A DNA stretch of 64,000 nucleotides from a virus (lineage: Duplodnaviria > Caudoviricetes): IMG/VR virus record IMGVR_UViG_3300021399_000003, positions 32,001-96,000 of that record; one strand, 5' to 3'. Shown here one piece after another: positions 9,402 through 59,404 of the stretch; the stretch's first letter is position 1; each line of letters starts with the position of its first letter. Position numbers and translations under genes: made by a program. The notes beneath the pieces were generated by a model. That model was not told where the DNA came from. It ran no database searches and was given only the letters and a program-made list of their open reading frames with translations.

Positions 9402-9456
9402 ACAATCACTTCCTTTCTTTATTCTATAATTATTATATCATAGAATTTTATTTTTG

Positions 9457-9621
9457 TCAATTATAAGGATATTCATGTTCTTTATAATCCCAAGCTACCT
9501 GTTCTTCATATTCATCTTTTTCTTGACGAATAGTCAAACAAGCAGCGTTATTTCTAGACCAAAATACAGGACAATTTTCTCCATACTTACATTCAAAACA
9601 TTCAATATCTTTAAAAATCAT
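9457..9621 (-). CDS. Small Cys-containing hypothetical protein (54 aa)
   Basis: Manual translation MIFKDIECFECKYGENCP...; overlaps the end of the upstream gene. Confidence 0.5.
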   Translation of the reverse strand: MIFKDIECFECKYGENCPVFWSRNNAACLTIRQEKDEYEEQVAWDYKEHEYPYN

Positions 9622-11389
9622 ATTTATTTTCATCCTTTAAAAGTTCATAATCATCAACAAACACTTGAATTGATGTGCGGCCAGCGAAAGTGTTTAGATT
9701 TGCACGCCCATAAACCGTAAGCTTATCCATTCTATTATTCATAACGGCATCAACAAAATCCATATCCTTAAATCTTACATAATCAACACCATTACAAGAA
9801 ATCTTCATACTATCCTTATTCGCGCCCATAGTCATAACATTTGAAAGTGTAATGTTTTTAATTACAAATTTAATTTCATCTATATGATTACCGAAAAACT
9901 CTGGGTGTGAAGCTAACACCGTGAGTAGCTCAGTATTATTATCGCCAGCATCAAGAATATAATCCACGGTATAACACTTTTTAAAATCATCATCATTAAG
10001 AACTGTGTTACTATAATTTAATAACCGCTCATCTAATGTAGCATTAATTCCAAAGCCTGCCGCGGCATCGTGTCCAGCGACATAATTCATTAGATTACTT
10101 TCTTCAAGAAACTGCTTAAAACTGGGCAGACCAGCAAAATTTCCGCTGCTACGAATACTTCCATTGATTTCACCTTTATCATTGCGGCGACCAATCATAA
10201 CTGGCTTATTATATTTATTTACAATAGCCATTGCGACTAGTCCAGTTAGTTCAGGCGGAATATTATCTTCTGGTTCAATTTCTACTAAAATAATATTATT
10301 GCTTGCCAAATCATTCTTTTGAATTTTGAAATCAATTAAGTCAATGGCCTTTTCTTTTAACTTATCTTGGCGGGCCTTTGCGTTTTTACCTACACGCGCG
10401 GTTTGCTCTGCGGCAGTCTCTGTGTCTCCTGGTCTTGCACCACGCTTCGTGCTTGGAAGGACTCTATCTGGTTCTACAAAGCAGTAGAACATTGCTTCTT
10501 TTTCTTTCATTGATCCAACACGAGTTAGAGCATTGATTAAAGGAGCGATATAAAAGGCAATATCAATGGGAGTTAAACCGCTCCATGGAAAAGTAGCTTT
10601 TTCTTTTAAGGAATATGATTGTGATGCCAGTAAAGTTTGAAAGCCCTTATTTTGAATATTAGAAAGACCTTCAAGCATAAGATAGTTAGTTTCAGCTGTT
10701 GTCCTATCCATAACATCAGCGATTTCTCCAAGAGCAACTAAATCCATATATTCTTGTGCTTGATGAATGCCGAGAATTTCATCCAGCACCTCACAAAACT
10801 TATATACTACACCCGCACCACAAAGAGATTTATTTTCATAATGTGGAGAAAGCTGATTATTTACTATTACTGTATTTGTAGCAGTAGAAATAACAGGATT
10901 GCCATCAGTATCATAAAGTTGTTCGTGATGGTCTAGCACAAGACAGTCAATATTTAAGTCTGCTAATCGTGCGTGTTCTTCTACATCATAACTCGCGGAA
11001 TCTGGACAAATGACTAAATCAATATCATTTAAAGTTTCTAACCAATCAATCTTGTCATCTAGACCATGCTGCTTATGCTCATGTAGCGTAAAATTAAGAT
11101 TAGCCTTTGGAAAAATATGCTTAATATAAAGCCATAAAATTGAGGAAGAAGTAAAGCCATCGCAGTCTGAATCTACGATAAACATAATTTTACTATCAGC
11201 GCGCAAATGCCGTAAGAGCATATCTGCGGCTAAATCAATATTTTCAAGTCCATATGGATCTAATTCGCATTTTGAAGTTGGATATAAAAAATTTTCAATA
11301 TCTTTTACGCCACGATCAATTAGAATTTCTTGAAGCGCGTAGTCTGGATTCATTGTATAATAATTTCTTAGTCTGTAAATCATAAACAT
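9611..11389 (-). CDS. recJ: RecJ-like DHH single-stranded DNA exonuclease
   Basis: DSDCDG, DHH, GAGV, ADVM, GSIR, GHDAAAG. Confidence 0.9.
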   Translation of the reverse strand: MFMIYRLRNYYTMNPDYALQEILIDRGVKDIENFLYPTSKCELDPYGLENIDLAADMLLRHLRADSKIMFIVDSDCDGFTSSSILWLYIKHIFPKANLNFTLHEHKQHGLDDKIDWLETLNDIDLVICPDSASYDVEEHARLADLNIDCLVLDHHEQLYDTDGNPVISTATNTVIVNNQLSPHYENKSLCGAGVVYKFCEVLDEILGIHQAQEYMDLVALGEIADVMDRTTAETNYLMLEGLSNIQNKGFQTLLASQSYSLKEKATFPWSGLTPIDIAFYIAPLINALTRVGSMKEKEAMFYCFVEPDRVLPSTKRGARPGDTETAAEQTARVGKNAKARQDKLKEKAIDLIDFKIQKNDLASNNIILVEIEPEDNIPPELTGLVAMAIVNKYNKPVMIGRRNDKGEINGSIRSSGNFAGLPSFKQFLEESNLMNYVAGHDAAAGFGINATLDERLLNYSNTVLNDDDFKKCYTVDYILDAGDNNTELLTVLASHPEFFGNHIDEIKFVIKNITLSNVMTMGANKDSMKISCNGVDYVRFKDMDFVDAVMNNRMDKLTVYGRANLNTFAGRTSIQVFVDDYELLKDENKYDF

Positions 11390-11394
11390 TACTC

Positions 11395-12519
11395 CTATCT
11401 TACTTTTACTCTTGTTTTATATAAATGTTCAAAAACTTCTTTTCCTTTATCAAATGGAGAATCTTTTTCCTCCAATACATTATCATAATCCCATATGTAA
11501 GAAAAAACAGCCTGGTTGCTATATTTACGGCACATAGATATTATTCGTTCTTTATATTTTCTGGCTTTTTCGGTTCTCCAATCTGTGTACTCTTTATCTA
11601 AAGCAATAATGATTTCATTTGCGCCAAGAACATTAGTTAATAAACTAATGTGATATTTATTAAAGGTGGAACCGCAGCAGGCAACACAATTACTTAAATC
11701 TCCATAATACCCATCATCTAGTAATACTGATTTTTCAGCTTCTGCTATAATGGCTTGTCGCCGCATTTTAATTCCATTTTGATGCTCATGTATACCATAC
11801 AAATTGAATTGCAACGGATGAGCGTAAGTTATTCTACCGATTTGTAATGGCCTGTATTTGCCATATGCTTCAGCTTCTTTTTTATCTAATGTACGCCCGC
11901 GAATACCAACTAATCTTCCATTTATATCAAAGTGCGGAATAATGATTTTATTTTGTCCCAGTGAAAATCCAATATGAAATTTATCCATAGCTTCTGGAGT
12001 TATTCCATCCCGCAGCCAAGTTGGATGATAATAATGTGTGAAGTAAGATAAAACTTCTTTAGGATATTCATCAAGAATGGGAATGTTATTATTAAATTGA
12101 TATTTGTTTAAATCTAATTCATAATTATATGATACTTTGTTTGTATTTATAACAATGTGTTTTAAACATTGTTTTACATATTCTTCAGCCTCTTCTATTG
12201 TAACTGGATAATGATTTAATGCCATATATTTTTGATATAATCCAAATATAGACATTGCTTCATTACATTCAGTATAGCATCTAAATATTTTATTATTTTG
12301 ATACCAATATAATTTCATAGATTCAGCTTCATTGATAGGATTATGACAAATTGTTGGACATACAAGATATTGTTTATCTTCATTCACCGTAATCTGTGTT
12401 ACTCCAAGACTTTCAAGAAAATTCTTTACATCATGAAGTGTAATTGAATCTACAATATCTTTTTTACTTGCTATTGCTAAATCAAGTTCACTATCTTGAT
12501 TTTGTAATGTCGTTAGCAA
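11395..12519 (-). CDS. DNA primase (Zn finger + TOPRIM)
   Basis: CPTICHN..FRCYTEC; IIPHFD..GIRGR; EAEKS; ALDKE; between helicase and RecJ. Confidence 0.85.
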   Translation of the reverse strand: MLTTLQNQDSELDLAIASKKDIVDSITLHDVKNFLESLGVTQITVNEDKQYLVCPTICHNPINEAESMKLYWYQNNKIFRCYTECNEAMSIFGLYQKYMALNHYPVTIEEAEEYVKQCLKHIVINTNKVSYNYELDLNKYQFNNNIPILDEYPKEVLSYFTHYYHPTWLRDGITPEAMDKFHIGFSLGQNKIIIPHFDINGRLVGIRGRTLDKKEAEAYGKYRPLQIGRITYAHPLQFNLYGIHEHQNGIKMRRQAIIAEAEKSVLLDDGYYGDLSNCVACCGSTFNKYHISLLTNVLGANEIIIALDKEYTDWRTEKARKYKERIISMCRKYSNQAVFSYIWDYDNVLEEKDSPFDKGKEVFEHLYKTRVKVR

Positions 12520-14139
12520 TTATGTTTCCTCCTTTATCATTTCGCGCCAATCACCTATCATTTCTTCTATTACCGTTTGGAATGTATCCGTTTTCCATTC
12601 TATTGGTGAATTATTTGAAGAAGTCATAAATAAATCTACTCTTCTTCCAGTGCCAAGATGGATGTGTGACCAGATTCTTATACCACGATAACGTCCACGA
12701 CGCATCTTATAAATATCTATAATATGAGTTGGACGATAATCAGGATTTTCTAGATATATTGCATCAATAATTCCTTCTCTTACATATGGTCTTAATTTTG
12801 GAATTAAATCATCCCACATTTTCGTATCTACTCTACTCATTACGCAACCCATATCGCATTTATCTGCTACTGCTTTTGAACCACGAATACAAGATTCATC
12901 TTTAAATTCTCCATCACTTTCCATGCCTTTCGCATTTACCTGCGTAGCAGAAAAAATAAAAACATTATAATCCTTTGCGATTTGCTTTAATTGATTTGCC
13001 ATCATCATAAGAATAACATCTTCGCGCAAACCATTTTTCGCAAACTGATTCATCATGCTCGCGGTTGAATGAATGTAATCAAAGAATACATATTTTACTC
13101 CATCTACTGTTGCATACTTTTTTATTGTCGCTTCAACATTTACAAGATTCGGTTCACTAATTTCCTCAATTAAAAAATAGCCTTGATATTCCTGCATTAT
13201 TGTCGCCGCAAACTTGACTCGTTGTAATTCTCCTGGTTCATATCTACCAGTAAGAATATGCGCTTCATCTACACCAGATAAATATGCTAACATCATTGTT
13301 TGAATTTCTTCAACATCCATCTCTGTGACAATAAATAAAACTTTACGAGGTTGTCGTGGTTCATCAAAATTTATTTCATGAATAAATGTTCCTTTTTCAT
13401 GCGACCATCTTTTTGGATATGCTAAACGACACGCATCAAAAACTGATGTTCTACTTTTACCAGCATTTGTGCTTGCGGATTTCAAAAAGAAACAACCTTC
13501 TCGCGCGCCACGACAAGCTGAACTAAAAATATCTCCTTCAAGATCAGGACCTATATTTGGAGTTTTTTGTAAATTATCAATAAGTTCAAAAATACTATTC
13601 GCGGGGTCACCATTTCTTTTTGTCCCATTAACAAAATCATTTCTAATTTCGTTAAATTTTCCCTCGACTTCTGCTAAAATATCATCAAGACTAGAATCTT
13701 CGCAATGTTTTTGAACTTCACTCGCTTTTAATGGGTCATCTACATCTTTATCATCTATATAAAAATTACTAATATCATAATGTGCTTTCTTTAATTGATA
13801 AAGTAATGAATACTTTTTTAATCGGTTATAATACATTTGAAAATTGCTTGGTTCAGCAAATTCATATGCATTTTTTAAATATTCTAAACCGCCATTACTA
13901 AAATATTGTGTCGCGGCCGCAGTACCTTTTTGATTTTCAAATTCCTTATCTACTTCATATACACTTAAACTTTTTGCTCCTGCTTCGTACATACCTCGTA
14001 TTACTAGAAAGCAGGCTCTATCAACTTTTGCTTCTACAAAGTCATAAGGATTTATATCTGGATATTCTATAAACAAAAGAAGATTATGCATTAAACTTCC
14101 TACTATCTGACGATATGCCGTCTTATCTGATAGTGTCAT
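12520..14139 (-). CDS. DnaB-like replicative helicase
   Basis: Walker A ASTNAGKS, FIVTEM, FFDYI, ATQVN, KMRRG. Confidence 0.88.
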   Translation of the reverse strand: MTLSDKTAYRQIVGSLMHNLLLFIEYPDINPYDFVEAKVDRACFLVIRGMYEAGAKSLSVYEVDKEFENQKGTAAATQYFSNGGLEYLKNAYEFAEPSNFQMYYNRLKKYSLLYQLKKAHYDISNFYIDDKDVDDPLKASEVQKHCEDSSLDDILAEVEGKFNEIRNDFVNGTKRNGDPANSIFELIDNLQKTPNIGPDLEGDIFSSACRGAREGCFFLKSASTNAGKSRTSVFDACRLAYPKRWSHEKGTFIHEINFDEPRQPRKVLFIVTEMDVEEIQTMMLAYLSGVDEAHILTGRYEPGELQRVKFAATIMQEYQGYFLIEEISEPNLVNVEATIKKYATVDGVKYVFFDYIHSTASMMNQFAKNGLREDVILMMMANQLKQIAKDYNVFIFSATQVNAKGMESDGEFKDESCIRGSKAVADKCDMGCVMSRVDTKMWDDLIPKLRPYVREGIIDAIYLENPDYRPTHIIDIYKMRRGRYRGIRIWSHIHLGTGRRVDLFMTSSNNSPIEWKTDTFQTVIEEMIGDWREMIKEET

Positions 14140-14151
14140 TTACATCTCTCC

Positions 14152-14661
14152 TTAATCATCAAAAAAATCATCAAGACTCCAATTTTTCTTTCCAACTGTA
14201 GAAGTGTTTTCTTTGATTTTTACCATTCGTGGCTTAACTGTTGAGTTCATACTTTCTGCAAAAGCACTAGCCAGCTTATTTTGTTCATATTCTTGACGTC
14301 GCTTATATTTCATCATCTTCTCAACTGTTGGCGGATTAACTAAACATAGAGACTCTGATAATTTTTGTGCTTTTTCTACTAAATAAATATAATTTAAACA
14401 ATCAATAATTATTTGATCGGTATAGCCATAAGTATCCATAAGACGCTTGCGTTCAGCCCATATACGAGGCCCTGGCGCCTTTAATCCAAAAATATTACAA
14501 ACACTTTCTGAAAACTTATCACGTGATTGTTGTTCTTTTAGACAATTCGGACAATATTTATGAAATGTAGTTGAACGTGGACTAGCATATTCTACTAGCT
14601 CATTTCGTAAAAATTGTTGCTTACACTTAAAACATTGTAATGTTGCTTTTGCCATAATCAT
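14152..14661 (-). CDS. Zn-finger replication-associated hypothetical protein
   Basis: CFKC..CPNC; directly upstream of the helicase. Confidence 0.65.
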   Translation of the reverse strand: MIMAKATLQCFKCKQQFLRNELVEYASPRSTTFHKYCPNCLKEQQSRDKFSESVCNIFGLKAPGPRIWAERKRLMDTYGYTDQIIIDCLNYIYLVEKAQKLSESLCLVNPPTVEKMMKYKRRQEYEQNKLASAFAESMNSTVKPRMVKIKENTSTVGKKNWSLDDFFDD

Positions 14662-14731
14662 CCCTCCTACTATTTAGTATATCACAGATTTGAAAAAAAG
14701 TCAATAAAAAAAGACCTATACAGGTCTTTTC

Positions 14732-15736
14732 TTATTCCATAATTTCTTTCATTTCATCTATGAATAACTCAACAAGGTCGCTTTGCGAGGGAACTGCTTG
14801 ACTAAGCTTAAACGTTTCTGTGCCAAACACACGCTTGATAATATCTTTAGCAATATTAAAGTGTTGCTCTTTTGCTTCGTCTGTTTCAGCTTCATTAATA
14901 TACGCTTGCCAAATTGCCTTGGCTTCTTCCATAATTTCATTAAATGGACGAGCCTTAATTTGCGCGATAACTGTATGGTCAGTTACTTCTGCTCCATCCT
15001 TTTCAACAGCTTGGTCAATTGCATCACCAATCGCATCAACCAATTCTTGATAACCAAACTTAATCTTTGGCGCCAAGTATTGATAACGACTGCCCGCAAA
15101 TACTGTCGGTGTAGAGCGTGTGTATAGATAGCGTTCAGAAGTGCCGTCATTATTCATCTGAACTTGTAAATATCCAATAATATCTACAATACTGTTTACA
15201 ATTTGATAGCACTGATTCGGCAAGTCAGGCGCTACCGCGGTGATTTCATTACCCTCTTCATCGCGCATTTCGGTTGGCTTTTCCTTACTATGCGCGATAA
15301 ATAAAATACCAAAACCAAGAAGTGTAATTTCACGCCAGCATTCAGAGAACTCATTTCGTAGCATACCCCAGCCTTGGCCCCAAGGAATTTCTCGGATGGA
15401 ATCAACACTTTCACGCTGACAAATATACTTCTCACAAAGTTGCCATGCGATAGAAGCGGTATCTACTACAATACTATCATACATTTCACGTGCCTGTGGC
15501 TTACGTAGTTGTGTAAGAACCTTGCGGAAATCACTCCAACGAAGAATAGGAACACTACGAATACCAGCTAAGGCATTAGTGCCTTGCTCAAAATTTAGAA
15601 ATAGTGAGCGAGGTAATTGCGAGCCAAATGTGGATTTACCCGTTTTAGGCTGCCCATAAATAAGTAAAAACTTTCCTTTTAGGTCGCGGGAAATCTTACT
15701 TGGTTCAAGAGAGAAAATATCAATATCGTTTGCCAT
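14732..15736 (-). CDS. AAA_24/Sak4-like ATPase (single-strand annealing/recombination)
   Basis: YGQPKTGKST, VVDT, FIAH; next to SSB. Confidence 0.8.
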   Translation of the reverse strand: MANDIDIFSLEPSKISRDLKGKFLLIYGQPKTGKSTFGSQLPRSLFLNFEQGTNALAGIRSVPILRWSDFRKVLTQLRKPQAREMYDSIVVDTASIAWQLCEKYICQRESVDSIREIPWGQGWGMLRNEFSECWREITLLGFGILFIAHSKEKPTEMRDEEGNEITAVAPDLPNQCYQIVNSIVDIIGYLQVQMNNDGTSERYLYTRSTPTVFAGSRYQYLAPKIKFGYQELVDAIGDAIDQAVEKDGAEVTDHTVIAQIKARPFNEIMEEAKAIWQAYINEAETDEAKEQHFNIAKDIIKRVFGTETFKLSQAVPSQSDLVELFIDEMKEIME

Positions 15737-15776
15737 ATGCTATCCCTCCTTAGAAAATGAGAATAAGGTTTTCACC

Positions 15777-16682
15777 TTATTCCCAATCATAGGACTTAGC
15801 AGCCTTGGCTGGCTCCTTAGCCGCCTTTGGAGCATTACCCTTCTTGGCATCAATCTGTAGCTGTTCAATCATTGCCTTACGGACATTGAACGCCTTCTTG
15901 ATGTCAGTCTTATCATAGGCAAACTCTTCCTCATAAGGTTCATCACTGCCCTTGGTAATGACTAGCTGACGTACCGTGCGAGTTGTAGTCTCGGGTACAT
16001 CCTCACCCCAAGAGCTTTCAGTAGCCTTTGGCTTATCTTCAATAGAAGTAACACGAATACGACCGCGAACCTCTACAGTGTCATCAATATTCCAGTTGCG
16101 CTCAATGTAATCAATAGTATCGGGATTCTCAACTACAAACTCAATCACATCTAGCTTACCCTGATACTGAACAATTGCGCCCTTGATGATTAGCTTGCCA
16201 GTCTCTTCACCCTCACGGTCAACCTCTGGCTTCATATCCATGATATAAATATCAATAATGAAAGAAGCTACATCTGCGGTCGCACCAGAGTTAATGAAGC
16301 TAGTATTAATCTGCCAGCCATGAATTAGCTGACCGCTATTACGAGAAACAAAGTTATTCTCGCGTAGATTCGCGCCAGAAATACGAACAGTATCGGCATT
16401 ATCAATGCCAACCATCTGTGCGGTCTTCATTTCGGCTAGATTCTCAATCTGAGTATAACCCGGATTTAGCTTATTTTGCTGAGTATATTGTGCAGCGAAC
16501 ATACTGACTGGGATTTCACTAGTCTCTTCGCGCCCGCCATAAGTCTGAGTTACACGAATTGTAAGATTCGCACGCTTATACTTGCGGCCATCACTTAATG
16601 TGCCATCGTTAATTACTGCGTCTAGTAGCTTGCCAACAACATTAATTTTGTTATTTGCTTGTGTCATAATATCCTTGCTCAT
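15777..16682 (-). CDS. Single-stranded DNA-binding protein (putative, two OB folds)
   Basis: NKINVVGKL OB-type start, acidic/aromatic C-terminus YDWE, high-expression codon bias. Confidence 0.7.
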   Translation of the reverse strand: MSKDIMTQANNKINVVGKLLDAVINDGTLSDGRKYKRANLTIRVTQTYGGREETSEIPVSMFAAQYTQQNKLNPGYTQIENLAEMKTAQMVGIDNADTVRISGANLRENNFVSRNSGQLIHGWQINTSFINSGATADVASFIIDIYIMDMKPEVDREGEETGKLIIKGAIVQYQGKLDVIEFVVENPDTIDYIERNWNIDDTVEVRGRIRVTSIEDKPKATESSWGEDVPETTTRTVRQLVITKGSDEPYEEEFAYDKTDIKKAFNVRKAMIEQLQIDAKKGNAPKAAKEPAKAAKSYDWE

Positions 16683-16790
16683 ATTACATTTCTCCTTATC
16701 TTTTCTTTACATTTATTATATCATAATTTTTATATGTTGTCAAGATAAAACTAAGGCGATTCCACGAGGGAATCGCCCTCATTTATTCTA

Positions 16791-17150
16791 TTAGGCGTTC
16801 TCCTTGGCAGCCTTAGCAGCAGCGCGCTCAGCGGCCTTACGCTCCTTCTCAGCAGCTTTAGCCGCCTGCTTGGCCTCTTCCTCAGCTACTGGGTCATAGG
16901 CTAGACCAGCCTCAGTTAGTGTCTCATGACGAACAGTCTTAACCTTTGCCTTGCGAGTCTCGGTAGCATCTTCAACAACCTTCTCTTCTAGACGCTCAGT
17001 AACATAGCCCTTCTTAACTAGGCCATTAATGGAACCGGTAACGGCGGGAATGGAAATACCTAGGGTCTCTGCAATCTCATTCTTGGTAAACTCCTGGCCA
17101 AAGTGCTTCTTAAGAAAATTTAATACTAACTCTGAGTTGGGTGTGATCAT
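16791..17150 (-). CDS. Winged-HTH DNA-binding protein with Ala/Lys-rich tail
   Basis: TKNEIAETLGISIPAVTGSINGLVKKGYV. Confidence 0.75.
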   Translation of the reverse strand: MITPNSELVLNFLKKHFGQEFTKNEIAETLGISIPAVTGSINGLVKKGYVTERLEEKVVEDATETRKAKVKTVRHETLTEAGLAYDPVAEEEAKQAAKAAEKERKAAERAAAKAAKENA

Positions 17151-17258
17151 AAAACATCAATCTCCTTTATTAAATAATTATTTTTATATTTGTAAGCGGC
17201 AGGAATTTTACTCCTTTTCCTCTTTACAATCTTATTATATCAGATTTTTATATAAAAG

Positions 17259-17948
17259 TCAAATATTAGTTAAGTATTTTGCTACTGTTTGACGAGAAAT
17301 TTTTAATTCTTTTCCTATTTCATTTAAAGTATATCCCTGTTGTCGAAGTTCACGGGCTCTTGTTTTATTATTTTCTCGTTGATTTGTTGTTAATAAATCA
17401 GGTCGTAGTCGCTGTAAAACTCTATTTATTGTAGTTGTTCCACAATTTAAAATACTTGCTATTAATACAGTGCCGTATCCAGCCTCTTTCATTTCACAAA
17501 TTAAAGCATCTTTAGCGTGAGCAGTATTTAAATTATGATTTTTTAAAATATCAACTACTGTTTCTCTACTACATTTTAATTCTTGACAAATTTCAAAAAT
17601 CTTTTTATTTTGTTGCCGTAATATTAAAACTTGTTTTTCAATGCCCTCATTTAATCGTTTATTGCCACAACCACCTAATGTAGAATTATAACCATTATAA
17701 TAACTATTATAATAATTAATCCAATACATTTCTCTTTCATCTAATAAAGAATCTGAAACTTCTTCTATTAAAAAAACATGAAACTTTTCTTGGCCTATTA
17801 AATGAATAGCATTATAAAATTTATTTTTAATATTATTATTAGAATTATATAAATGTTGTTTAAAACGAGTTTCAATAGATAACGTAGTTTGACCAATATA
17901 AACCTTGTCATTCACATCATTTGTGATTTTATAAATATATCCCATCAT
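17259..17948 (-). CDS. GIY-YIG homing endonuclease with C-terminal HTH repeats
   Basis: GYIYKITN..VYIGQT..R, GYNSTLGG. Confidence 0.9.
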   Translation of the reverse strand: MMGYIYKITNDVNDKVYIGQTTLSIETRFKQHLYNSNNNIKNKFYNAIHLIGQEKFHVFLIEEVSDSLLDEREMYWINYYNSYYNGYNSTLGGCGNKRLNEGIEKQVLILRQQNKKIFEICQELKCSRETVVDILKNHNLNTAHAKDALICEMKEAGYGTVLIASILNCGTTTINRVLQRLRPDLLTTNQRENNKTRARELRQQGYTLNEIGKELKISRQTVAKYLTNI

Positions 17949-17951
17949 AAT

Positions 17952-18034
17952 CCCTCCCAGGATATTGATTATATAAGAGGCTTGTGTGGGAGCACATTAT
18001 CTCAAAGAGTAGCTAATTCTTTGCTTCCCTCTTA
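17952..18034 (-). promoter_or_regulatory. Structured endonuclease-gene leader, copy 2
   Basis: AAGAGG/CCTCTT; CAAAGA-ATTAGCTAC-TCTTTG; AGATAA; TGTG-CTCCCA-CACA; loop pairs with RBS TGGGAG. Confidence 0.75.
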
Positions 18035-18072
18035 CTATAATAATTATATTATAAATTTAGAAAAAAGTCAAA

Positions 18073-18474
18073 TTATTCAGAATCTTCTTCATTTAATTCT
18101 ATATCTTCCTTAATTTCAAATAAATTTTCTGCGAGTTCTGCAGTTTCAGAAGCGTCAGCATTATTAATTTGATCTAGCTTAGGAATGATATCAATCTTAT
18201 ATCCTTGTAGGGCTTTTTGCTCACTCTTAATACGGGCATCTAGTTGATTGGTGACAATAATCGCACCAACAAGTAAACGAGCATAATCAGCCTTATCTAA
18301 TGCCTCGTCAGTTCCTAGCTTATCATGTAAATTAAGGAAATCATTTCGCATTGTTTCTGCGGTTTGATAGCCTTTTTCTTCGTTATTCTTCTTATGCTCT
18401 TCCATTACTTGTTCTGCTAGGTTAGCAGTAGTCTGAGCAATCAAAGTAAATAATTCTACATATCTCTTATCCAT
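18073..18474 (-). CDS. Hypothetical helical protein
   Basis: ORF with RBS GGAG. Confidence 0.7.
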   Translation of the reverse strand: MDKRYVELFTLIAQTTANLAEQVMEEHKKNNEEKGYQTAETMRNDFLNLHDKLGTDEALDKADYARLLVGAIIVTNQLDARIKSEQKALQGYKIDIIPKLDQINNADASETAELAENLFEIKEDIELNEEDSE

Positions 18475-18486
18475 ATTATTTCTCCA

Positions 18487-20874
18487 TTACATAATTTCAA
18501 TTCCACTTTCTACTCCGCGCGCATCAATAATGCGAATTCCACTAGTTACGCGGTTTTGAATGGGAATAGAATCAACATTTAATAAAACCGCTTTATTATT
18601 GGTAGTAATAAATATCTTTTCTTGTGTTTCGGGCACAGCAAATACTGTTGCTAAAGTTTCTATCTTTAAATCCATTACTTGTGGGCCTTTAATCGCGCGA
18701 CTAGTCATATTGAAATCTTCTATCCTAGTAATTTTACCTTTACCAGTAGTAGTAATAGTTAAAAGACCACGATAGTTTATGTCTTTCTTTACTAGGGTCG
18801 CCGCACAAATAGTTTCAGTTGTTCCTAACTTAATGGCCTTAACGCCCTTAGTCATTCTTCCAGTAGTAGAAACCTCGCCAATTTCATAGAAGTTATAATT
18901 ACCAGCACTACCCGTAATAAAAATCTTGTCTTCATCGTTCATAGAAAGATATACTCCGACAAGCCTATCGTCAGTATCTAGCTTCATTACAGCAGTGCCC
19001 TTCTTAGCCCGCACATTATATTCACGAGTAACTGTCTTTTTAATATAACCTTTCTTACTTATGGTTACTAAATTATGATATGCATTGAAGGAAGTTGTAT
19101 CTATTAGTAGCAGGACTTTTTCATTATCTTGTAGAACAATTAGTTCATAAACAGAATAGTCCTTTCCATAATCTAAATCAGCCAAAGAAAAATTATACAT
19201 ACGACCAGCATTGGTGAATGCGGCAACAACTCCAAGGTTGGTTGTATACAAAGTATTGATTAGGTTCGCACCCTTCGGAGGCTTAATATTTACACCCTTT
19301 CGCCCACGTTTTCCACCCTGTAAATCTTCTTTCTTAACAAGACGCAACATATTGTTATCAAATAACATTACGCCGACTTCTTCTTCTTGAATTTGCTGTT
19401 CCTCGTTATCTTCATTCTCTACAATATTTAAAATCTTAGTACGACGAGCGTCGCCATATTTATCAGCCACTATCTGTAGTATTTTAATTAGTTCATTGTT
19501 CAAAGCGGTAGTATCAGATAATAAGTGGCGATACTCCTCTATTTTTCTTTTAAGTTCTTCTAGTTCATCATTTAATTTGATAGCATCTATTTTTGTTAAT
19601 GAAGAAAGCTTCATAGCGAGAATTGCCTTTGTTTGTTCTTCATTAAACTTAAAACGAGCAATAAGTTTTTCAGATGCTTCTGCTGGATTTTGAGAAGAGC
19701 GAATAATCGCGACAACTTCATCAATAGAGGCCGCCGCAAGAATAAGTCCTTCTACTACATTTTCGCGTGCGAGTGCTTTATCTAAATCAAATTGAATAAT
19801 GTTGCGCTTACATTCACGAATGTGGGTTATGTAGGCATCACATGCTTCGCGCCAACCAAATACTTTTGGAAAGCGTCCATTATCCAGTAGAATCATATTA
19901 ATAGCATACCAATTCTCAAGTCTTGTATCCTTGTAAAGCTTGGCTATCATTCGCTTTGGATTTGCGCCTTTTGAAAGATAAATACGAATATCGGCTATTT
20001 TCTTGGTATGGTCTACAACTCGTTCTATTCCATAACTTTCATTTTCATTTGTAAGGGCGGCTAGCTGGTCAATAATAGTGTTTGTAAAGACACCATAAGG
20101 TAGTTCAGTAGCCTGAATCATATGCTGGTCGGGGAAATATTCAAGTTTTGCCTTTAAACGAATAGATTCGCCCTTACCGTTTTTTAAGCTTTCGCGCACC
20201 GCTTTAGCATTTGTAATTGTTCCACCTGTTGCGAAATCAGGAGCACAATAAATTTCATTAAAACTTACATTGGGATTCTGAATAATTTTGATTAGTGCCT
20301 CGTTGACTTCGCGCAGATTGAATTGAGGAACTGACGTGGCCATTGCAACCGCAATACCAGAACATCCATTTACAATATTCCAAAATCCAATAGAAGGCAA
20401 TACAGAAGGAATCATTTCTGTATCGTCATAATTAGAATACCATTGTTCTCCGATAGCGTTTTTCTTTAAACCAGCAAAGAAATAATCTGCCATTTCACCA
20501 GCACGCATTTCAACATAACGTGCGGCCGCATGGCTATCTGGGGAAGATGGATTGCCATAGTTGCCTTGAACTTCTTCAATCGGATAACGATATGACCACG
20601 GACGAGCGGTTCGTATGAAAGTATCATACATTGCTACATCACCATGGACATATGACTGAGCCATTGCCGCGGCAACAGACTTTTGTGCTTTCTGAAATTT
20701 ATCTTTATGTGTTATCTTATTAGAAAATTGAGCGTACAATCCTTGACGTAAGCCAATCTTTAGAAAATCCCTAGCATCCGGTATTGCACGTTCCTGTGCC
20801 ACCGAAGCGGCGTAAGTCAAGAAAGCTCCTTCAATTTGTTTTTGAAAATCAGTTTCGTAAATCAAATTGTTCAC
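18487..20874 (-). CDS. gyrA: Type IIA topoisomerase, gyrase A-like subunit
   Basis: RAIPDARD, YVHGD, AAARY catalytic Tyr, GIAVAMAT, C-terminal pinwheel repeats. Confidence 0.92.
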   Translation of the reverse strand: MNNLIYETDFQKQIEGAFLTYAASVAQERAIPDARDFLKIGLRQGLYAQFSNKITHKDKFQKAQKSVAAAMAQSYVHGDVAMYDTFIRTARPWSYRYPIEEVQGNYGNPSSPDSHAAARYVEMRAGEMADYFFAGLKKNAIGEQWYSNYDDTEMIPSVLPSIGFWNIVNGCSGIAVAMATSVPQFNLREVNEALIKIIQNPNVSFNEIYCAPDFATGGTITNAKAVRESLKNGKGESIRLKAKLEYFPDQHMIQATELPYGVFTNTIIDQLAALTNENESYGIERVVDHTKKIADIRIYLSKGANPKRMIAKLYKDTRLENWYAINMILLDNGRFPKVFGWREACDAYITHIRECKRNIIQFDLDKALARENVVEGLILAAASIDEVVAIIRSSQNPAEASEKLIARFKFNEEQTKAILAMKLSSLTKIDAIKLNDELEELKRKIEEYRHLLSDTTALNNELIKILQIVADKYGDARRTKILNIVENEDNEEQQIQEEEVGVMLFDNNMLRLVKKEDLQGGKRGRKGVNIKPPKGANLINTLYTTNLGVVAAFTNAGRMYNFSLADLDYGKDYSVYELIVLQDNEKVLLLIDTTSFNAYHNLVTISKKGYIKKTVTREYNVRAKKGTAVMKLDTDDRLVGVYLSMNDEDKIFITGSAGNYNFYEIGEVSTTGRMTKGVKAIKLGTTETICAATLVKKDINYRGLLTITTTGKGKITRIEDFNMTSRAIKGPQVMDLKIETLATVFAVPETQEKIFITTNNKAVLLNVDSIPIQNRVTSGIRIIDARGVESGIEIM

Positions 20875-32015: not shown

Positions 32016-33251
32016 TCATATAATTTTGGCTAAGTCAGCAGTTTTACTGCGTTCTGTTTTTAATAATTTGACTGTTCCTGCTAGAGTGTTATCTTTTAAG
32101 GAATTAATTAAGCGAGCTAGCCCATTATTTTTTTCAAATTCTGCGCTATCGGTCTGTAGTATGTCCCCATTAACCCATAATTGGCTATTTTGGCCGCATC
32201 GACTTACTAGTAACTTATAACCGCCGCCAGTAATATTTTGTCCTTCAGAAACATAAATAATTGTGTTATCCCAAGAACAACCACGAATAAAACCAAGATT
32301 AGCAGCTTCAATAAGACCCTGATCCTGATATTGAGCTAATCCTTCTTCTCCTAAAATACTACTTATGGGGCCCAGTCCCCAAGCTATTTTTTCTTGCAAG
32401 TCTCCCGCGAGAAATCCTATTTCTGGTGCATCTTTAAATGGAACTAAATTACGTATAAATATAATTTTTTCCATGATGCCTTTTTGAATAAGATCTAAAG
32501 CATGCAATAGCATTAAATAATCTTTACCACTTCCTGGTACTCCGTATAAAATTTTAACCGGAATATCCATATTTTGAAGTAAATCAAATGCCATTTTTTG
32601 TTCTAGATTATATGGTTGTACTTTCTTGTTTAGAAAATTATTTTTAAAATTATTCCATTTAAGAGGGACATATTTATCGCCAGTCCATCTTAATACATCT
32701 TTTAATTCTTCATTTTCAAATATTTCACAATATTCATTAATATTTGCTTGAAGAATATTTACATTTGGATTTGAATATAAAGAAACTAATTCTTCTTCAT
32801 TTGGAGTAAATTTGCGCCAACCAGTATATTCTTCTATCGGCTTTTCTTTTTTTATCCAATAATAACATCTAATGTTGGCAATAGATGCCGCGCATATATT
32901 ATATAAACTAGCATCGCTAGTAATAAAAGTTACTTCTTCGTTTTTTTCTTGTTGTAAGAAAAAAGCTGAAGCAAGAATATTATGATCTGGAATATCCATT
33001 AAACATGGATGATGTTTAATGAATCTTTTAATTTTATTTAATGGTGGAAAATAGGTATGATATTGAGATGAAAAGACTATATCGCGTGTTGCTTTTCGTG
33101 CGAGATATTTTACTTCTTCATCTTTATGTACATTGGTCTTTATAGTCTCTAATTCTGTAATAACTAAAGGGCTGATCCAAATATCATCATAATACTCAGA
33201 ACAGCCATTTAGAATTGCAGAAGTATCTGCAAAATAAAGCAATATTATCAC
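32016..33251 (-). CDS. phoH: PIN-domain + PhoH ATPase
   Basis: DTSAIL/ELE/D PIN motifs; GVPGSGKD, FIRG, EGQN, GDILQ, ERS. Confidence 0.88.
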   Translation of the reverse strand: MIILLYFADTSAILNGCSEYYDDIWISPLVITELETIKTNVHKDEEVKYLARKATRDIVFSSQYHTYFPPLNKIKRFIKHHPCLMDIPDHNILASAFFLQQEKNEEVTFITSDASLYNICAASIANIRCYYWIKKEKPIEEYTGWRKFTPNEEELVSLYSNPNVNILQANINEYCEIFENEELKDVLRWTGDKYVPLKWNNFKNNFLNKKVQPYNLEQKMAFDLLQNMDIPVKILYGVPGSGKDYLMLLHALDLIQKGIMEKIIFIRNLVPFKDAPEIGFLAGDLQEKIAWGLGPISSILGEEGLAQYQDQGLIEAANLGFIRGCSWDNTIIYVSEGQNITGGGYKLLVSRCGQNSQLWVNGDILQTDSAEFEKNNGLARLINSLKDNTLAGTVKLLKTERSKTADLAKII

Positions 33252-42462: not shown

Positions 42463-42463
42463 G

Positions 42464-42606
42464 TGCGCCATCACGGATTTGAACCGTGGACTCCTTGATT
42501 AATGGTGGAGACCGCCAGAATTGCACTGGCACTATCAGTTTGTTCCTTTACTTCAATGCGCTTGCAGTCCCCAAGTCAAGTGCTCTACCAACTGAGCTAA
42601 TGGCGC
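42464..42606 (-). tRNA. tRNA-Lys(UUU) interrupted in the anticodon by a 70-nt tRNA/tmRNA-like insert (42503-42572)
   Basis: CTTGA-CT T[insert]TT AA-TCAAG; all other arms canonical. Confidence 0.88.
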
Positions 42607-45812: not shown

Positions 45813-46396
45813 ATACCCTATTTAATAAAACCGTTGCGGCCTTCGCCGTACTTGTATTATCCTTCTAACATATTCAACCACGTTGGAGATGAAGGCTGAG
45901 CCACGGGTAGCAATTCCGGACTTCTTCACCCCGTCTTTCGACCAACAACGGAGAGACTGTTTACTCTCAAATTTCACCTAAACCATTCAGCACAATAATA
46001 TCTAATCAAATCTATTAGATTCATTGTCGTTTTGGGCTACTTTTTCTGTGAACCTCGCTTATATCCTATTTCTAGGTTTCAACGACATCAAGCGTCTTGT
46101 TGGCATTTCCAAGGTTTGCGGTGGTAGCCAGCCACATCTAAAACGCCTAACTTGGATTCAGGTCACGCTTTTAACGCTCACCTTCTATTGCGACGCCGCG
46201 AGGAGCCAAGTTTTTGTTAGCGGATAACCAAGCACCTATCCTTAACATTAGGAGTTTCTCCATATCGCTAGTCATTACTGATTTCGCGGCCTTGGCTTGA
46301 AAGTATCCCATCAAGTTTGGGGCTGTTATTCAGATAGTCCAAGCAGAGTGGTTAGCTCTTCTTCACTTGGTTCAACCATTTTATTAAATAGGGTAT
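45813..46396 (-). ncRNA. Large structured RNA, ROOL-like
   Basis: 584 nt closed by a perfect 18-bp terminal helix (45813-45830/46379-46396), own sigmaA promoter at ~46450, no credible ORF, located in a tRNA cluster. Confidence 0.7.
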
Positions 46397-48084: not shown

Positions 48085-48218
48085 TGGTGCCCCAGACGGG
48101 ACTTGAACCCGTACACCCTCACGGATAGCGGATTTTGGTCGTGGGAAGGAGTGCTGCTCTCCAACAAGCCACTGGGCCCACGTAAGTCCGCTGCGTCTGC
48201 CAATTCCGCCACCAGGGC
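48085..48218 (-). tRNA. tRNA-Leu(UAA) interrupted in the anticodon by a 47-nt mini-tRNA insert (48136-48182)
   Basis: GCGGA-CT TA[insert]A AA-TCCGC; long variable arm; ACCA. Confidence 0.88.
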
Positions 48219-48938
48219 ATAAAAACCTGATGTAACCCTCACGCAGCTAGATGGTTACTTTGAATAGTACTTTAAGGTATACTGCTAATATATAGGCTAT
48301 CAGGCGTAGCCTTAACAAGTAAATGTGTGGTTGTTCGATATTTGCTCCTTTTATTTCTGAACCACACTAAGAAGCCCTTAAATCGACACTCCTCGAACAG
48401 GGTGCGTCCGCGACCATCACGCCGCTATGCATTGTTAACAATGGGCGATTTTTATCGTTGTTCGCCGCAACTACCTAGGTAATAAGTCTCCTAGTGGTGC
48501 GCTTCTTTGAGAGGCGTAAGGAGAACATTTGCGGTGGCGCCTCACAATTAACCGCAATTTCCCTTATAAAGCCCAGTGGGTGGACTCTGGCGCCGAAGTT
48601 TTATTTTCTAGTTTGTGGTGAACTTCAAACCCTTTATAAACTCCATTAATTGCTTCATACTAGAAAAGTAATTAATTTCATCGTTTCATAATCATCTTGT
48701 GATTATGCCGAATACGCTTTCACGTATTCTAAAACTCCTTGTACGCTTGGTACATGAGATAGCGGTGACGCCCTTCAAAAGTACTGGCCGCAATTTTTCG
48801 TTCAGCGTCTAATCCTGCCACTCATCAAGCTTTTCAGCTTGCTCACGGCGAGTCCAAGAAGAAGAAAATACAGTACGAGAAGTCTTACGCACAACTATCA
48901 TTCCTTTCCTTGTTTCTATAAATATTATATCACAATTT

Positions 48939-53849: not shown

Positions 53850-54070
53850 ATAGTATAAATACTATTATCGTCATATTGATTATTAGAAAATTGTTTAATC
53901 AGATCAATTGAAGTCATATGTAAAAGTCCATCTGAAGTTTTCCATGAAACCATTTTATTCTGCATTTTATTCTTATCTGCGGCGATAAGAATAATAAAAT
54001 CTTTAATTGTTATTTTTTCTAGTCCGCGTACTTTATTCCATCTCATACAAACTCTTTCATATCTTCCCAT
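53831..54070 (-). CDS. Hypothetical protein
   Basis: ORF track. Confidence 0.5.
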   Translation of the reverse strand: MGRYERVCMRWNKVRGLEKITIKDFIILIAADKNKMQNKMVSWKTSDGLLHMTSIDLIKQFSNNQYDDNSIYTIWEKIL

Positions 54071-54693
54071 TTAATTTTTACAATTATACGTTCGCCGCGA
54101 CGATTGCGCAATTCAATAGCAGGTCTACATACTACTCCTTCCATTTCACGTTCCTCTTCCGCGATTACAGAATTAGGATGGGTCTTTACATATTCTTCTG
54201 CTGCGTATAAGGAACCAGTGCCTACAATAGGCACAGCCTTAATTCCGAACATTTTTGCAGTTGTTTCTACCCATTCGCGCTCCTGATAGTTATCGCCAAT
54301 AAGCACATCAAAGAGAATAAAATCTACACCGTTGGGAATATACTTTCCACCGCCCTTCTGAATCTTGCGGCCATAACCTTCACCGAAAAGAATAACTTCC
54401 TTTTCGCCAAAAACCTGTTCAAAAATCTGAGCATTAACCTCACCGCCGAACAACTCATTCAAACGAGTAACAAGTTCTGCGGGAATAGCAGCATTATCGG
54501 TGCGACCACCAAAGGTAACAGTATGGCCATCCCAACATACGCGAATGTTAGTGCCATCAACCTTCTCAGTCCAAATCCAGCAATTATCGCTGAGATATTC
54601 TATAGTTGGGTCACGAAATACTCCCGGAAGTAGCTTTTTAGTTCCAGTTGTGTCTCTTTGATAGAGAGTATCAATCTTTTCATACTTTCTCAT
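54043..54693 (-). CDS. ATP-dependent RNA ligase (Rnl2-like adenylyltransferase core)
   Basis: YEKI, TEKVDGTN (motif I), FGEGYG, FDV, EGVV, KIK; no OB domain. Confidence 0.85.
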   Translation of the reverse strand: MRKYEKIDTLYQRDTTGTKKLLPGVFRDPTIEYLSDNCWIWTEKVDGTNIRVCWDGHTVTFGGRTDNAAIPAELVTRLNELFGGEVNAQIFEQVFGEKEVILFGEGYGRKIQKGGGKYIPNGVDFILFDVLIGDNYQEREWVETTAKMFGIKAVPIVGTGSLYAAEEYVKTHPNSVIAEEEREMEGVVCRPAIELRNRRGERIIVKIKWEDMKEFV

Positions 54694-55989: not shown

Positions 55990-57522
55990 TTAATGAATGG
56001 GCTCATATCTCTTACTGTTCAGCTTTTCATACATCATGTCCTCAGCCTTCTTGCCAGACATAATCATTTCAAAGATTACAGGAGAGCAACCAGAAACAGT
56101 AGTTACGTCAGGGCCAACGTCCAAAACTGTATTATTACGTGCGTTTACATTCCAAAAAACAAGAGAAGGCATCTTGTATCCAGAATGGCTCCACTTATCA
56201 CGCATCTTATCCATAAAGGTTTGTACCTGATTGGCACTGTAGCCATTATTTCTATTCCAAGAGGAATATCCCTGTGCGGAATCAATTTCTTGGTCACTGA
56301 TAATGACAATGGTTTCAGGCATATCTGCCTGACGCAGATGATTCCGAACAGCAGTATTCAGCACAAGGTCAAATACAGACTGTAGATTGGTGTTTTCGCA
56401 AAGATTCGTCTTTACGATACGGTCAACCTTGTCGCAGAAGTCCACGCCGCGAGTCTCAACAAACTTCGCCGTGCGGCTGAAGCTGATGTAAGAGTTTGCG
56501 AAAGGTCCCTTATTACGCTCTGCGGCATAAAGAGCAAGAGAGACTGCGACATCAATAGGAGCAACGCTACCAGCACCACTCGTCATACTTCCGCTTGTAT
56601 CGGCGACAACAAGGGCATTCAGGGACATGCCATGGAAGTAATCAGTTAGATTCTCCCAATACTTGTTAATCATCAGGCGGTCGGTATTGTCAAGGGCAAT
56701 ATTACTGCCACGGCCATACCAGCTATAGTCCGAACCCATAAGCTTAATGGCCTTAGCAACCACATCATAAGGATATAGTGCGGCTGCATTAACCTTGGTA
56801 GAGGTATCCTTGGCAAACGCTTCATACTTCGCCTTGATTAGATCACGACGAGCAAAAGCGTTCTTATAAATCAGGCCAGCACGAGAAGGAATCTTGTCAA
56901 ATTCAATCTCATTCCAGCGATTTGTGGACATAAGGCGCTCCAGTACACGAATACGCTCACGAAGGTTAGAAAGCAGTACACGATACTGACGAGAGGTTAG
57001 ACCCATAGTATGGGCAGTTAGACGTCCATAACGCTTAGTCTTGGCAGAAGAAGCGTTCTCGGAAGCTGCCCACTTACCAGCAAGGGAAATAGCACCCTTG
57101 GTCTTGTAGTCAAGGGCAAGCTGCTTACCAAGAGCATATAGAGCCTCATGCTCACAGGAAGTCCCTACGAGAGCATATAGGTCGTCCCAGCGGCCATACT
57201 CAGCAATCTGGTCAAGATTGCGAAGTACAGCATCACGATCTACATCAGCAAGCCAATGTAGGCATACACGGAAAAATCTTCTTTCCCCTTGGCCGCCGCG
57301 CACGTCCCGCTCGTAGAATAGGCACTTTAGGGCATATACAGGGTTCTCCTGATAGGCTTCCTTAAAAAGCAGAATACAATCACTTTCGGTGCGCTGACGA
57401 TAAGCTGCGCCGAAAGAGAAGAGGTCATATAGCTTAGAGCTAGTAGTGGTTCGCGCAACAGCATGATTTTCGGTATACTTATAAGTATTTTGAGAAGCCA
57501 TAGCATTGTAAAGACGATTCAT
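55990..57522 (-). CDS. DUF2828 family TROVE/Ro60-like protein with vWA domain
   Basis: TEN, RDVRGGQGER, YGRWDDL, KW, LYPYD, VADTSGSM (MIDAS), ISD, FWNV. Confidence 0.85.
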   Translation of the reverse strand: MNRLYNAMASQNTYKYTENHAVARTTTSSKLYDLFSFGAAYRQRTESDCILLFKEAYQENPVYALKCLFYERDVRGGQGERRFFRVCLHWLADVDRDAVLRNLDQIAEYGRWDDLYALVGTSCEHEALYALGKQLALDYKTKGAISLAGKWAASENASSAKTKRYGRLTAHTMGLTSRQYRVLLSNLRERIRVLERLMSTNRWNEIEFDKIPSRAGLIYKNAFARRDLIKAKYEAFAKDTSTKVNAAALYPYDVVAKAIKLMGSDYSWYGRGSNIALDNTDRLMINKYWENLTDYFHGMSLNALVVADTSGSMTSGAGSVAPIDVAVSLALYAAERNKGPFANSYISFSRTAKFVETRGVDFCDKVDRIVKTNLCENTNLQSVFDLVLNTAVRNHLRQADMPETIVIISDQEIDSAQGYSSWNRNNGYSANQVQTFMDKMRDKWSHSGYKMPSLVFWNVNARNNTVLDVGPDVTTVSGCSPVIFEMIMSGKKAEDMMYEKLNSKRYEPIH

Positions 57523-59234: not shown

Positions 59235-59253
59235 TATGTTCTCCTTTGAATAG

Positions 59254-59404
59254 TCGGGAACCTGGGACTCGAACCCAGGACACACGGCTTATTGGTCATG
59301 AAGGATAGATTTGAACTATCATTATCTTCTGCTAGACAGAAGTAGTTTTCCAATTTAACTTACTTCATGAAGGCCGCTGCTCTGACCTACTGAGCTAGTT
59401 CCCG
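59254..59404 (-). tRNA. tRNA-Ile(UAU) interrupted in the anticodon by a complete 77-nt tRNA-like insert (59293-59369)
   Basis: GCGGC-CT T[insert]AT AA-GCCGT; insert is a full cloverleaf ending ACCA. Confidence 0.88.

Follow-up and report, generated by a model that had tools for sequence, protein, structure and literature searches.

How might a phage obtain a leucine tRNA from a gene whose anticodon loop is interrupted by 47 bases that themselves resemble part of a tRNA? The question is raised by a locus in the window, the 64,000-nucleotide stretch of DNA analyzed here, which represents bases 32001-96000 of the complete 169,459-bp genome of an uncultured phage (direct terminal repeats, 34% G+C). 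The portal protein of this phage is nearest to those of Enterococcus, Bacillus, and Lactococcus phages (~31-33% identity), which makes the host probably a Firmicute. A minus-strand tRNA cluster spans 40.3-59.9 kb of the window, and the Rfam tRNA model revealed three over-long tRNAs: 42464-42606, 48088-48218, and 59254-59404. The cluster also holds a full-length ROOL RNA (298 bits, 45818-46394, minus strand) and a drum RNA (60 bits, 48591-48686, minus strand), the latter ~370 nt upstream of the interrupted tRNA-Leu. ROOL and drum RNAs adjoin tRNAs in related phages too (loci L002 and L004).

The gene at 48085-48218 on the minus strand encodes a type-II tRNA whose acceptor stem, D arm, long variable arm, T arm, and encoded CCA are intact. 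The Rfam tRNA model matched 48088-48218 at 40.6 bits and placed a 50-nt insertion in the anticodon loop; the anticodon stem encloses 54 nt, versus the usual 7. When bases 48136-48182 were deleted in silico, ARAGORN called the remainder tRNA-Leu(UAA). A 47-nt insert in tRNA-Leu(UAA) at exactly this position had been proposed in the original prediction, and the Rfam insertion and the ARAGORN call bear it out. The gene thus consists of an 87-nt tRNA with encoded CCA plus the 47-nt insert. Specifically, the 5′ exon (48183-48218) comprises the 5′ strand of the acceptor stem, the D arm, the 5′ strand of the anticodon stem, and loop bases C32-A35; the 3′ exon (48085-48135) comprises loop bases A36-A38, the 3′ strand of the anticodon stem, the variable arm, the T arm, the 3′ strand of the acceptor stem, and ACCA. 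The D and anticodon arms of the 5′ exon are identical to those of an uninterrupted tRNA-Leu (L092, 128-223). The phage carries no second tRNA-Leu(UAA), and the interrupted gene is its only one. Relatives of the locus among cultured phages were matched at the level of the tRNA only.

All three interrupted tRNAs were missed by ARAGORN when it was run without its intron option. With that option, the intron was misplaced and the identities were wrong: 42463-42606 was called Thr (true Lys), 48085-48218 was called Val (true Leu), and 59253-59404 was called Arg (true Ile). Standard tRNA finders miss or mislabel such genes, so that phage tRNA repertoires, the tally of hidden suppressor tRNAs, and arguments from codon usage are biased.

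Read in the direction of the tRNA, the insert (48136-48182, minus strand) begins with the 5′ strand of an acceptor-like stem (insert bases 1-6, 48177-48182), which pairs with 48140-48145; base 7 faces a mismatch in this copy. A mini D-like hairpin with a CAGU loop between CC and GG lies in the linker (48169-48176). There follow a T-like stem-loop with 5-nt strands, forming four pairs here, and the 7-nt loop AGCAGCA (48147-48163), the 3′ strand of the acceptor-like stem (48140-48146), and an ACCA tail of discriminator A plus CCA (48136-48139), the final base of which is the final base of the insert. The elements listed in the original prediction are all present: the 6-bp CGUGGG/CCCACG stem, the 4-bp GGAG/CUCC stem, the loop, and the ACCA tail. 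This copy is among the least perfect of the family described below, with 6/7 acceptor-like and 4/5 T-like pairs, the two non-pairs lying at the stem junction. Folded alone, neither the 47-mer (z = -1.23) nor the whole precursor (z = +0.20) was better than its shuffles. A single insert sequence is not significant alone, and it is the comparative evidence that is decisive.

The possibility that the insert is a genuine tRNA gene was rejected: ARAGORN found no tRNA in the 47-mer itself, and neither ARAGORN nor the Rfam tRNA model called a cloverleaf with an anticodon arm in it. In an Rfam search over the region, the outer tRNA was the only significant match, and the insert itself had none. A weak match to mascRNA-menRNA (16.1 bits, E = 0.72), covering part of the 5′ region of the insert and the T arm of the outer tRNA, shows generic tRNA-like shape only.

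Ten related phage loci, fetched via a neighbouring glycosyltransferase gene, proved to carry homologous inserts in tRNA-Leu(UAA). A scan for this tRNA-Leu type with 35-65 extra loop bases yielded a further body of material, namely 24 IMG/VR loci and 51 metagenome loci with 50 distinct loop-plus-insert strings. Thirty-eight distinct homologous inserts, all in tRNA-Leu(UAA) genes of uncultured phages, fit a single template anchored at the 3′ end: 7 nt, linker, 5 nt, 7-nt loop, 5 nt, 7 nt, and a 4-nt tail. Members were kept only if at least 9 of the 12 pairs formed. The inserts are 35 to 63 nt long, the linker being mostly 10-28 nt and absent in one member. Copies identical or near-identical to the window's insert occur in L017, L023, L026, and L029; in L023 and L029, its nearest variants, G4:C of the terminal stem is replaced by A:U, a compensatory change.

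Covariation within the family is strong. Paired cells amounted to 93.6% in the acceptor-like stem and 96.8% in the T-like stem, values inflated by the requirement for at least 9 of 12 pairs. The number of standard pair types, four to six at most positions, is not inflated by this selection. Among the twelve gap-free members of 47 nt, 91.5% of cells were paired versus 34-48% in slid registers, 11 of the 12 pairs had changes on both sides, and the observed covariation was reached by none of 500 shuffles. An alignment of 23 inserts with MAFFT and RNAalifold recovered only the T-like helix, with compensatory changes in 4/5 pairs, the 5′ strands being out of register from the variable linkers. The 3′-anchored alignment and the gap-free 47-nt subset were used in its place. 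Of the 456 stem cells in the family, 47 are G:U, which shows that it is RNA of the tRNA's own strand that folds in this way. For the same reason, the terminal inverted repeats of a DNA transposon were rejected as an explanation: with these G:U cells, the pairing holds only in RNA of this strand.

The family also resembles tRNA in detail. The loop-closing pair is G:C in 38/38, like G53:C61, and loop positions 3 and 4 are C and A in 36/38, like C56 and R57. Discriminator A (A73) is found in 32/38 and G1:C72 in 22/38. All 38 have 12 nt between the 7-nt loop and the 4-nt tail, a distance selected by the template. The tail is NCCA in 35/38 (ACCA in 31, GCCA in 2, UCCA in 2) and ACAA, CGGA, or CCGA in the other three. 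Otherwise typical inserts with the tail ACAA or ACUA were seen at L018 2703-2749, L005 12489-12607, and L013 3003-3120. These could be decaying copies, or CCA could be not strictly required; the length of 4 nt is retained where CCA has been lost.

The linker is more than a spacer. A 3-bp stem around an NAGW loop (CAGU-type) is fully paired in 20 of the 33 members that bear the motif, with several covarying stem sequences. This hairpin was evident only in a test centred on the motif; a generic search found linker hairpins in 28/38 inserts versus a shuffle mean of 23, no difference. The idea that linker bases go together with loop positions 2 and 5 was rejected, the pattern being broken by L022. 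The insert had been described as keeping only the top half of a tRNA. The geometry of an acceptor/T minihelix is indeed found in every family member, but the linker also holds the covarying D-like hairpin, and by its pairing pattern the insert is better described as a tRNA without an anticodon arm than as acceptor plus T arm only. Equally, the proposal that selection acts on processing determinants only is countered by this hairpin and by the conserved, GGCAGCA-like loop, in which the unpaired bases C3, A4, and A7 are maintained.

We next consider the outer tRNA. Across the family, 189 of 190 cells of the anticodon stem, whose two strands the insert separates, are paired, and three positions show 3-4 pair types. 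Such pairing with compensatory changes across the insert indicates selection on the two exons as a single folded tRNA. This tRNA-Leu type is commoner without an interruption, with at least 117 IMG/VR loci versus the 24 interrupted ones. In 1.02 Mb around 117 uninterrupted tRNA-Leu genes, we found a single NCCA-ended tRNA-like insert; thus, the inserts concentrate in particular phages.

The inserts occupy three sites in the loop: 32/33 (18 members), 34/35 (13), and 35/36 (7, the window's copy included). Removing everything from the first base of the stem through the A of CCA restored the loop CUUAAAA in 38/38, and ARAGORN called each of the 38 products spliced in silico as tRNA-Leu(UAA). Three sites and one restored loop indicate that the predicted cut sites are defined by the insert and not by the host tRNA, since a site fixed by the host tRNA cannot explain three. 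The window's insert had been placed one nucleotide later (35/36) than the other two inserts of the window (34/35). In the sequence this offset is ambiguous, because there is an A before the insert and an A at its end: removal of 48136-48182 or of 48137-48183 gives the same product. The structural rule favours 35/36. A closely related insert in L043 lies unambiguously at 34/35.

Sub-lineages of the family, defined by loop and linker, are each found at more than one site. The inserts at L027 2012-2058 and L071 1450-1496 share an identical linker and T arm (34 nt) and have unrelated acceptor-like stems and different sites; either the stem changes far more quickly than the core or each insertion brings a new one. 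Together, these observations argue for repeated insertion, and the family is probably mobile.

The other two over-long tRNAs in the window are interrupted in the same manner. The tRNA-Lys(UUU) gene (42463-42606, minus strand) contains a 70-nt, ACCA-ended, tRNA-like insert (42503-42572) at 34/35. The tRNA-Ile(UAU) gene (59253-59404, minus strand) contains, also at 34/35, a whole 77-nt tRNA(CUA) ending in ACCA (59293-59369). Removing the inserts gives tRNA-Lys(UUU) and tRNA-Ile(UAU). The three inserts of the window share no sequence beyond the common architecture, in agreement with the independent origins that had been suggested for them. More NCCA-ended tRNA-like inserts, 44-129 nt long, interrupt the tRNAs for Thr, Lys, Ile, Gln, Val, and Asn in related loci. 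These range from 44-nt minihelices to whole tRNAs, are unrelated in sequence, and obey the same end rule.

Several observations touch on these siblings. The nested tRNA(CUA) (59293-59369, minus strand) is of the amber suppressor type. Very long open reading frames, such as one of 5129 aa at genome positions 5308-20697, are open under the standard code, and the phage does not look TAG-recoded throughout. Related phages also contain anticodon-loop inserts of 174-295 nt (L002 15263-15529, L005 7713-7975, and L004 17355-17742); by eye these resemble small group I introns, and Rfam reported none at the gathering threshold. In L010, a phage tmRNA (13930-14227, 62 bits) lies directly upstream of a tRNA (14229-14350) whose interrupting 48-nt minihelix ends in ACCA and has a canonical T loop.

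Taken together, the comparisons suggest that the 47 bases form a genuine intervening sequence within a functional tRNA-Leu(UAA) gene and belong to a widespread, probably mobile family of mini-introns. The same data can be read without splicing. The outer tRNA would then be a disabled carrier whose product is a CCA-ended mini-tRNA, acting as decoy or cofactor and freed by RNase P plus 3′ trimming, or a selfish mobile element would have killed the gene. Conservation extends to the shape of the insert and to some of its unpaired bases, one sibling is a complete and presumably functional tRNA(CUA), and the related cores with unrelated acceptor stems at different sites (L027 and L071) fit mobility. 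We nevertheless regard this reading as quite improbable. The exons are perfect in 38/38 genes, with covariation in the anticodon stem on either side of the insert, and the exact 7-nt loop is regained every time. Neither would be expected of a dead carrier. In addition, the phage, at 34% G+C, has only this tRNA-Leu(UAA).

If the insert is an intron, its relation to known introns has to be considered. Group I introns are marked by a U before the 5′ splice site and a G at their 3′ end. A group I intron was rejected for the window's insert, which is 47 nt long, has no Rfam match at E up to 10, and has an A before it and an A at its end. The broader idea of a small self-cleaving or self-splicing ribozyme would accommodate the conserved unpaired bases, and group I introns occupy the same tRNA-Leu(UAA) loop in other organisms. 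Even so, it is very improbable: 47 nt is far below the size of any self-splicing intron, the Rfam ribozyme and intron families gave no match even at E up to 10, the window copy has neither the U before it nor the G at its end, and the unrelated sibling inserts have only tRNA shape in common. The likeness to the classical group I intron of cyanobacteria, plastids, and some bacteria, which lies between U34 and A35 of tRNA-Leu(UAA) (cf. bioRxiv 10.1101/2020.01.27.920355), extends to the tRNA and the loop; those introns are at least 200 nt long, have a catalytic core (P3-P9), and splice themselves, whereas the window's insert has 47 nt and the shape of the top half of a tRNA.

The introns of archaeal and eukaryotic tRNAs offer a different likeness. 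They too are small, depend on proteins, and lie in or near the anticodon loop, and their exons are held by the tRNA fold and joined by a ligase. They rely on a bulge-helix-bulge, EndA, and RtcB or Trl1, whereas the window's insert has no bulge-helix-bulge and is not at 37/38; here the intron would be recognized by its own tRNA-like shape. An archaeal-type intron was rejected on these junctions, which flank the terminal stem without 3-nt bulges, and on the genome of the phage, which encodes no EndA or RtcB. In RNase P model hairpins, in mascRNA from MALAT1, and in mitochondrial tRNA punctuation, an embedded tRNA-shaped module likewise marks exact cuts. In those systems, however, the flanks are released and not rejoined, and none lies within the anticodon loop of another tRNA or has an encoded CCA followed by the next exon.

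Bacterial RNase P cleaves model hairpins consisting of an acceptor/T arm and a 3′ NCCA at the base of the stem, leaving a 3′-OH on the upstream product and a 5′-phosphate on the downstream one. T4 Rnl1 seals breaks with 3′-OH and 5′-phosphate ends in tRNA anticodon loops. We propose that RNase P would make the 5′ cut, before the first paired base of the insert, and that a host tRNA 3′-end endonuclease or another CCA-respecting nuclease would make the 3′ cut, immediately 3′ of the A of CCA. The 5′ exon would then end in a 3′-OH and the 3′ exon begin with a 5′-phosphate. The exon halves would be held together by the folded outer tRNA, and an ATP-dependent RNA ligase of the phage, Rnl1-like or Rnl2-like, would seal the anticodon loop. 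We infer splicing itself, the cutting enzymes, and the sealing enzyme alike, and we assign this combination of RNase P, a cut after CCA, and a phage ligase a probability of about 0.5.

The 5′ cut is the step for which the insert itself says most. As judged from sequence and covariation, the insert has the features of an RNase P model hairpin: ~12 stacked pairs, a T-like loop, a single-stranded 5′ leader, and a 3′ RCCA. RNase P-type cutting at this end is plausible. The claim that the insert is the part recognized by RNase P and RNase Z is plausible, by sequence, in its first half and does not fit a classical RNase Z cut. Classical RNase Z cleaves on the 3′ side of the discriminator, and CCA impedes it; here, CCA is encoded and must leave with the insert if a 7-nt loop is to result, and the insert was rejected as a substrate of RNase Z on this ground. 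Endonucleolytic activity after CCA is known for some RNase Z/BN enzymes. In Firmicute-type hosts, precursors that encode CCA are usually finished by exonucleases. As exonucleolytic trimming would destroy the 3′ exon, the proposed 3′ cut would require an RNase Z/BN-type endonuclease acting after CCA or another nuclease.

Several observations count against the RNase P model. The base before the 5′ cut is C in 18, A in 7, and U in 13 members, C or A more often than the U that RNase P prefers. Three members lack CCA, and the window's copy has its two non-pairs at the stem junction. The conserved loop and the CAGU hairpin suggest a specific partner beyond the general tRNA enzymes. Finally, the phage encodes a kinase/HD enzyme that would be needed only for cyclic-phosphate and 5′-OH ends, not for the products of RNase P. 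A rival, modelled on the repair of anticodon-nuclease damage by T4, holds that the insert is a true intron read by a dedicated phage or host endonuclease that recognizes the minihelix, its loop, and the CAGU hairpin. Cleavage at both junctions would leave 2′,3′-cyclic phosphate and 5′-OH ends, which the kinase/HD enzyme would heal and Rnl1 would seal. The phage has the full heal-and-seal set for this, a Pnkp-like kinase with an HD domain and Rnl1, and a surface for specific recognition seems to be offered by the conserved loop (C3, A4, A7) and the CAGU-loop hairpin. Hosts do not ordinarily cut after CCA, and the clustering of inserts in particular phage lineages is expected if a phage factor is needed. 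On the other side, no candidate nuclease was found, the genes sought (EndA, RtcB, and RNase Z-like) being absent from the phage. Siblings with unrelated loops and linkers, even a whole tRNA, obey the same end rule, which points to generic tRNA shape, and the NCCA tail and the 12-bp measure are exactly the determinants of RNase P. We consider a dedicated nuclease unlikely, although it deserves to be taken seriously.

Both the RNase P model and this rival call for a ligase, and the phage encodes two. An Rnl2-type RNA ligase gene of 216 aa (54043-54693, minus strand; Pfam PF09414, E = 2.9e-16) lies inside the tRNA cluster. Its product, which weakly matches the T4 Rnl2 structure 1S68, is a candidate sealing enzyme. 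An Rnl1-like ligase is encoded at genome positions 130833-131975 (T4 Rnl1 structures 2C5U/5TT6, E about 1e-14). In near-complete records, Rnl1 was present in 6/9 insert-bearing phages versus 1/23 phages with uninterrupted tRNA (p = 0.0006), and either ligase family in 9/9 versus 9/23 (p = 0.002); these p values ignore relatedness and are confounded by the kinship of the insert-bearing phages, and the control phages were not fully screened for inserts elsewhere in their genomes.

The Rnl1-like gene belongs to an RNA repair neighbourhood outside the window (genome positions 121536-131975, loci L088 and L001), together with genes for a Thg1-like 3′-5′ polymerase (121536-122357) and the Pnkp-like kinase with an HD domain (125027-125911). 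Within the window, a Ro60/TROVE-like protein (DUF2828 plus DUF7788; 55990-57522, minus strand) and a PIN-PhoH protein (32016-33251, minus strand) are encoded. Along with the ligases, they suggest heavy investment in RNA surveillance and repair. A search of the phage genome for genes encoding RtcB, EndA, RNase Z-like, and CCA-adding enzymes returned none, and the rest of the genome yielded neither an RNase P RNA nor any other Rfam family. A functional parallel to these genes is the tRNA repair of T4, in which Rnl1 and a kinase/phosphatase reseal a break in the anticodon loop (PrrC; Pnk, Rnl1); the window's phage has Rnl1 and Pnkp-type homologues. T4 repairs damage inflicted by the host and removes no sequence, whereas here the break would be programmed by an insert encoded in the gene.

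Introns of this kind have been noticed before. Devoto et al. 2019 (Nat Microbiol, PMC6784885) described 'enigmatic' introns in tRNAs of Lak megaphages, one of which, in Thr(UGU), 'may encode a tRNA'. According to a 2026 survey of jumbo phages (PMC13037316), introns of this sort 'could encode another tRNA'. No mechanism is offered by either paper. Like the window's insert, the Lak introns are short, non-group-I inserts in the anticodon loops of phage tRNAs. They differ in that they are 80-114 nt long, with an extra hairpin before the tRNA-like part and no terminal CCA (Table S6 of PMC6784885), whereas the window's insert has 47 nt, no 5′ hairpin, and an ACCA end; the two are alike in kind and not one sequence family. 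The same two papers contain no CCA-ended minihelix of 45-55 nt, no rule running from the first stem base to CCA, no multiple sites, and no link to RNase P or a ligase. A search of the literature on nested and tRNA-like introns found no paper on CCA-ended minihelix inserts, their cut-site rule, or their mechanism. The inserts are a variant of known but unexplained phage tRNA introns.

More broadly, several phage lineages may use a third, undescribed route of tRNA splicing, in which a mini-tRNA serves as the intron, RNase P and a CCA-respecting nuclease cut, a phage ligase seals, and the mini-tRNAs move between loop positions and from one tRNA to another. We advance this generalization tentatively, at a little under even odds. 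If true, a tRNA splicing pathway that depends on protein or RNP would be seen for the first time in the bacterial world, as would an intron of any kind defined by tRNA end-processing signals. RNase P and phage RNA ligases would gain a further function, and the phage tRNA introns called 'enigmatic' since 2019 would have an explanation. As the smallest version, the 47-nt form offers the best substrate for testing this biochemically.

Once excised, the CCA-ended minihelix may itself be functional. In the loci examined, minihelices with the loop GGCAGCA, GGCAGUA, or GUCAUCA were not found outside the anticodon loops of tRNA-Leu, and the phage genome contained no free-standing copy with any of these three loops at 12/12 pairs. 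Two 46-nt CCA-ended minihelices with canonical or near-canonical T loops, at L052 9461-9506 and L169 5905-5950, lie apparently outside any recognizable anticodon loop.
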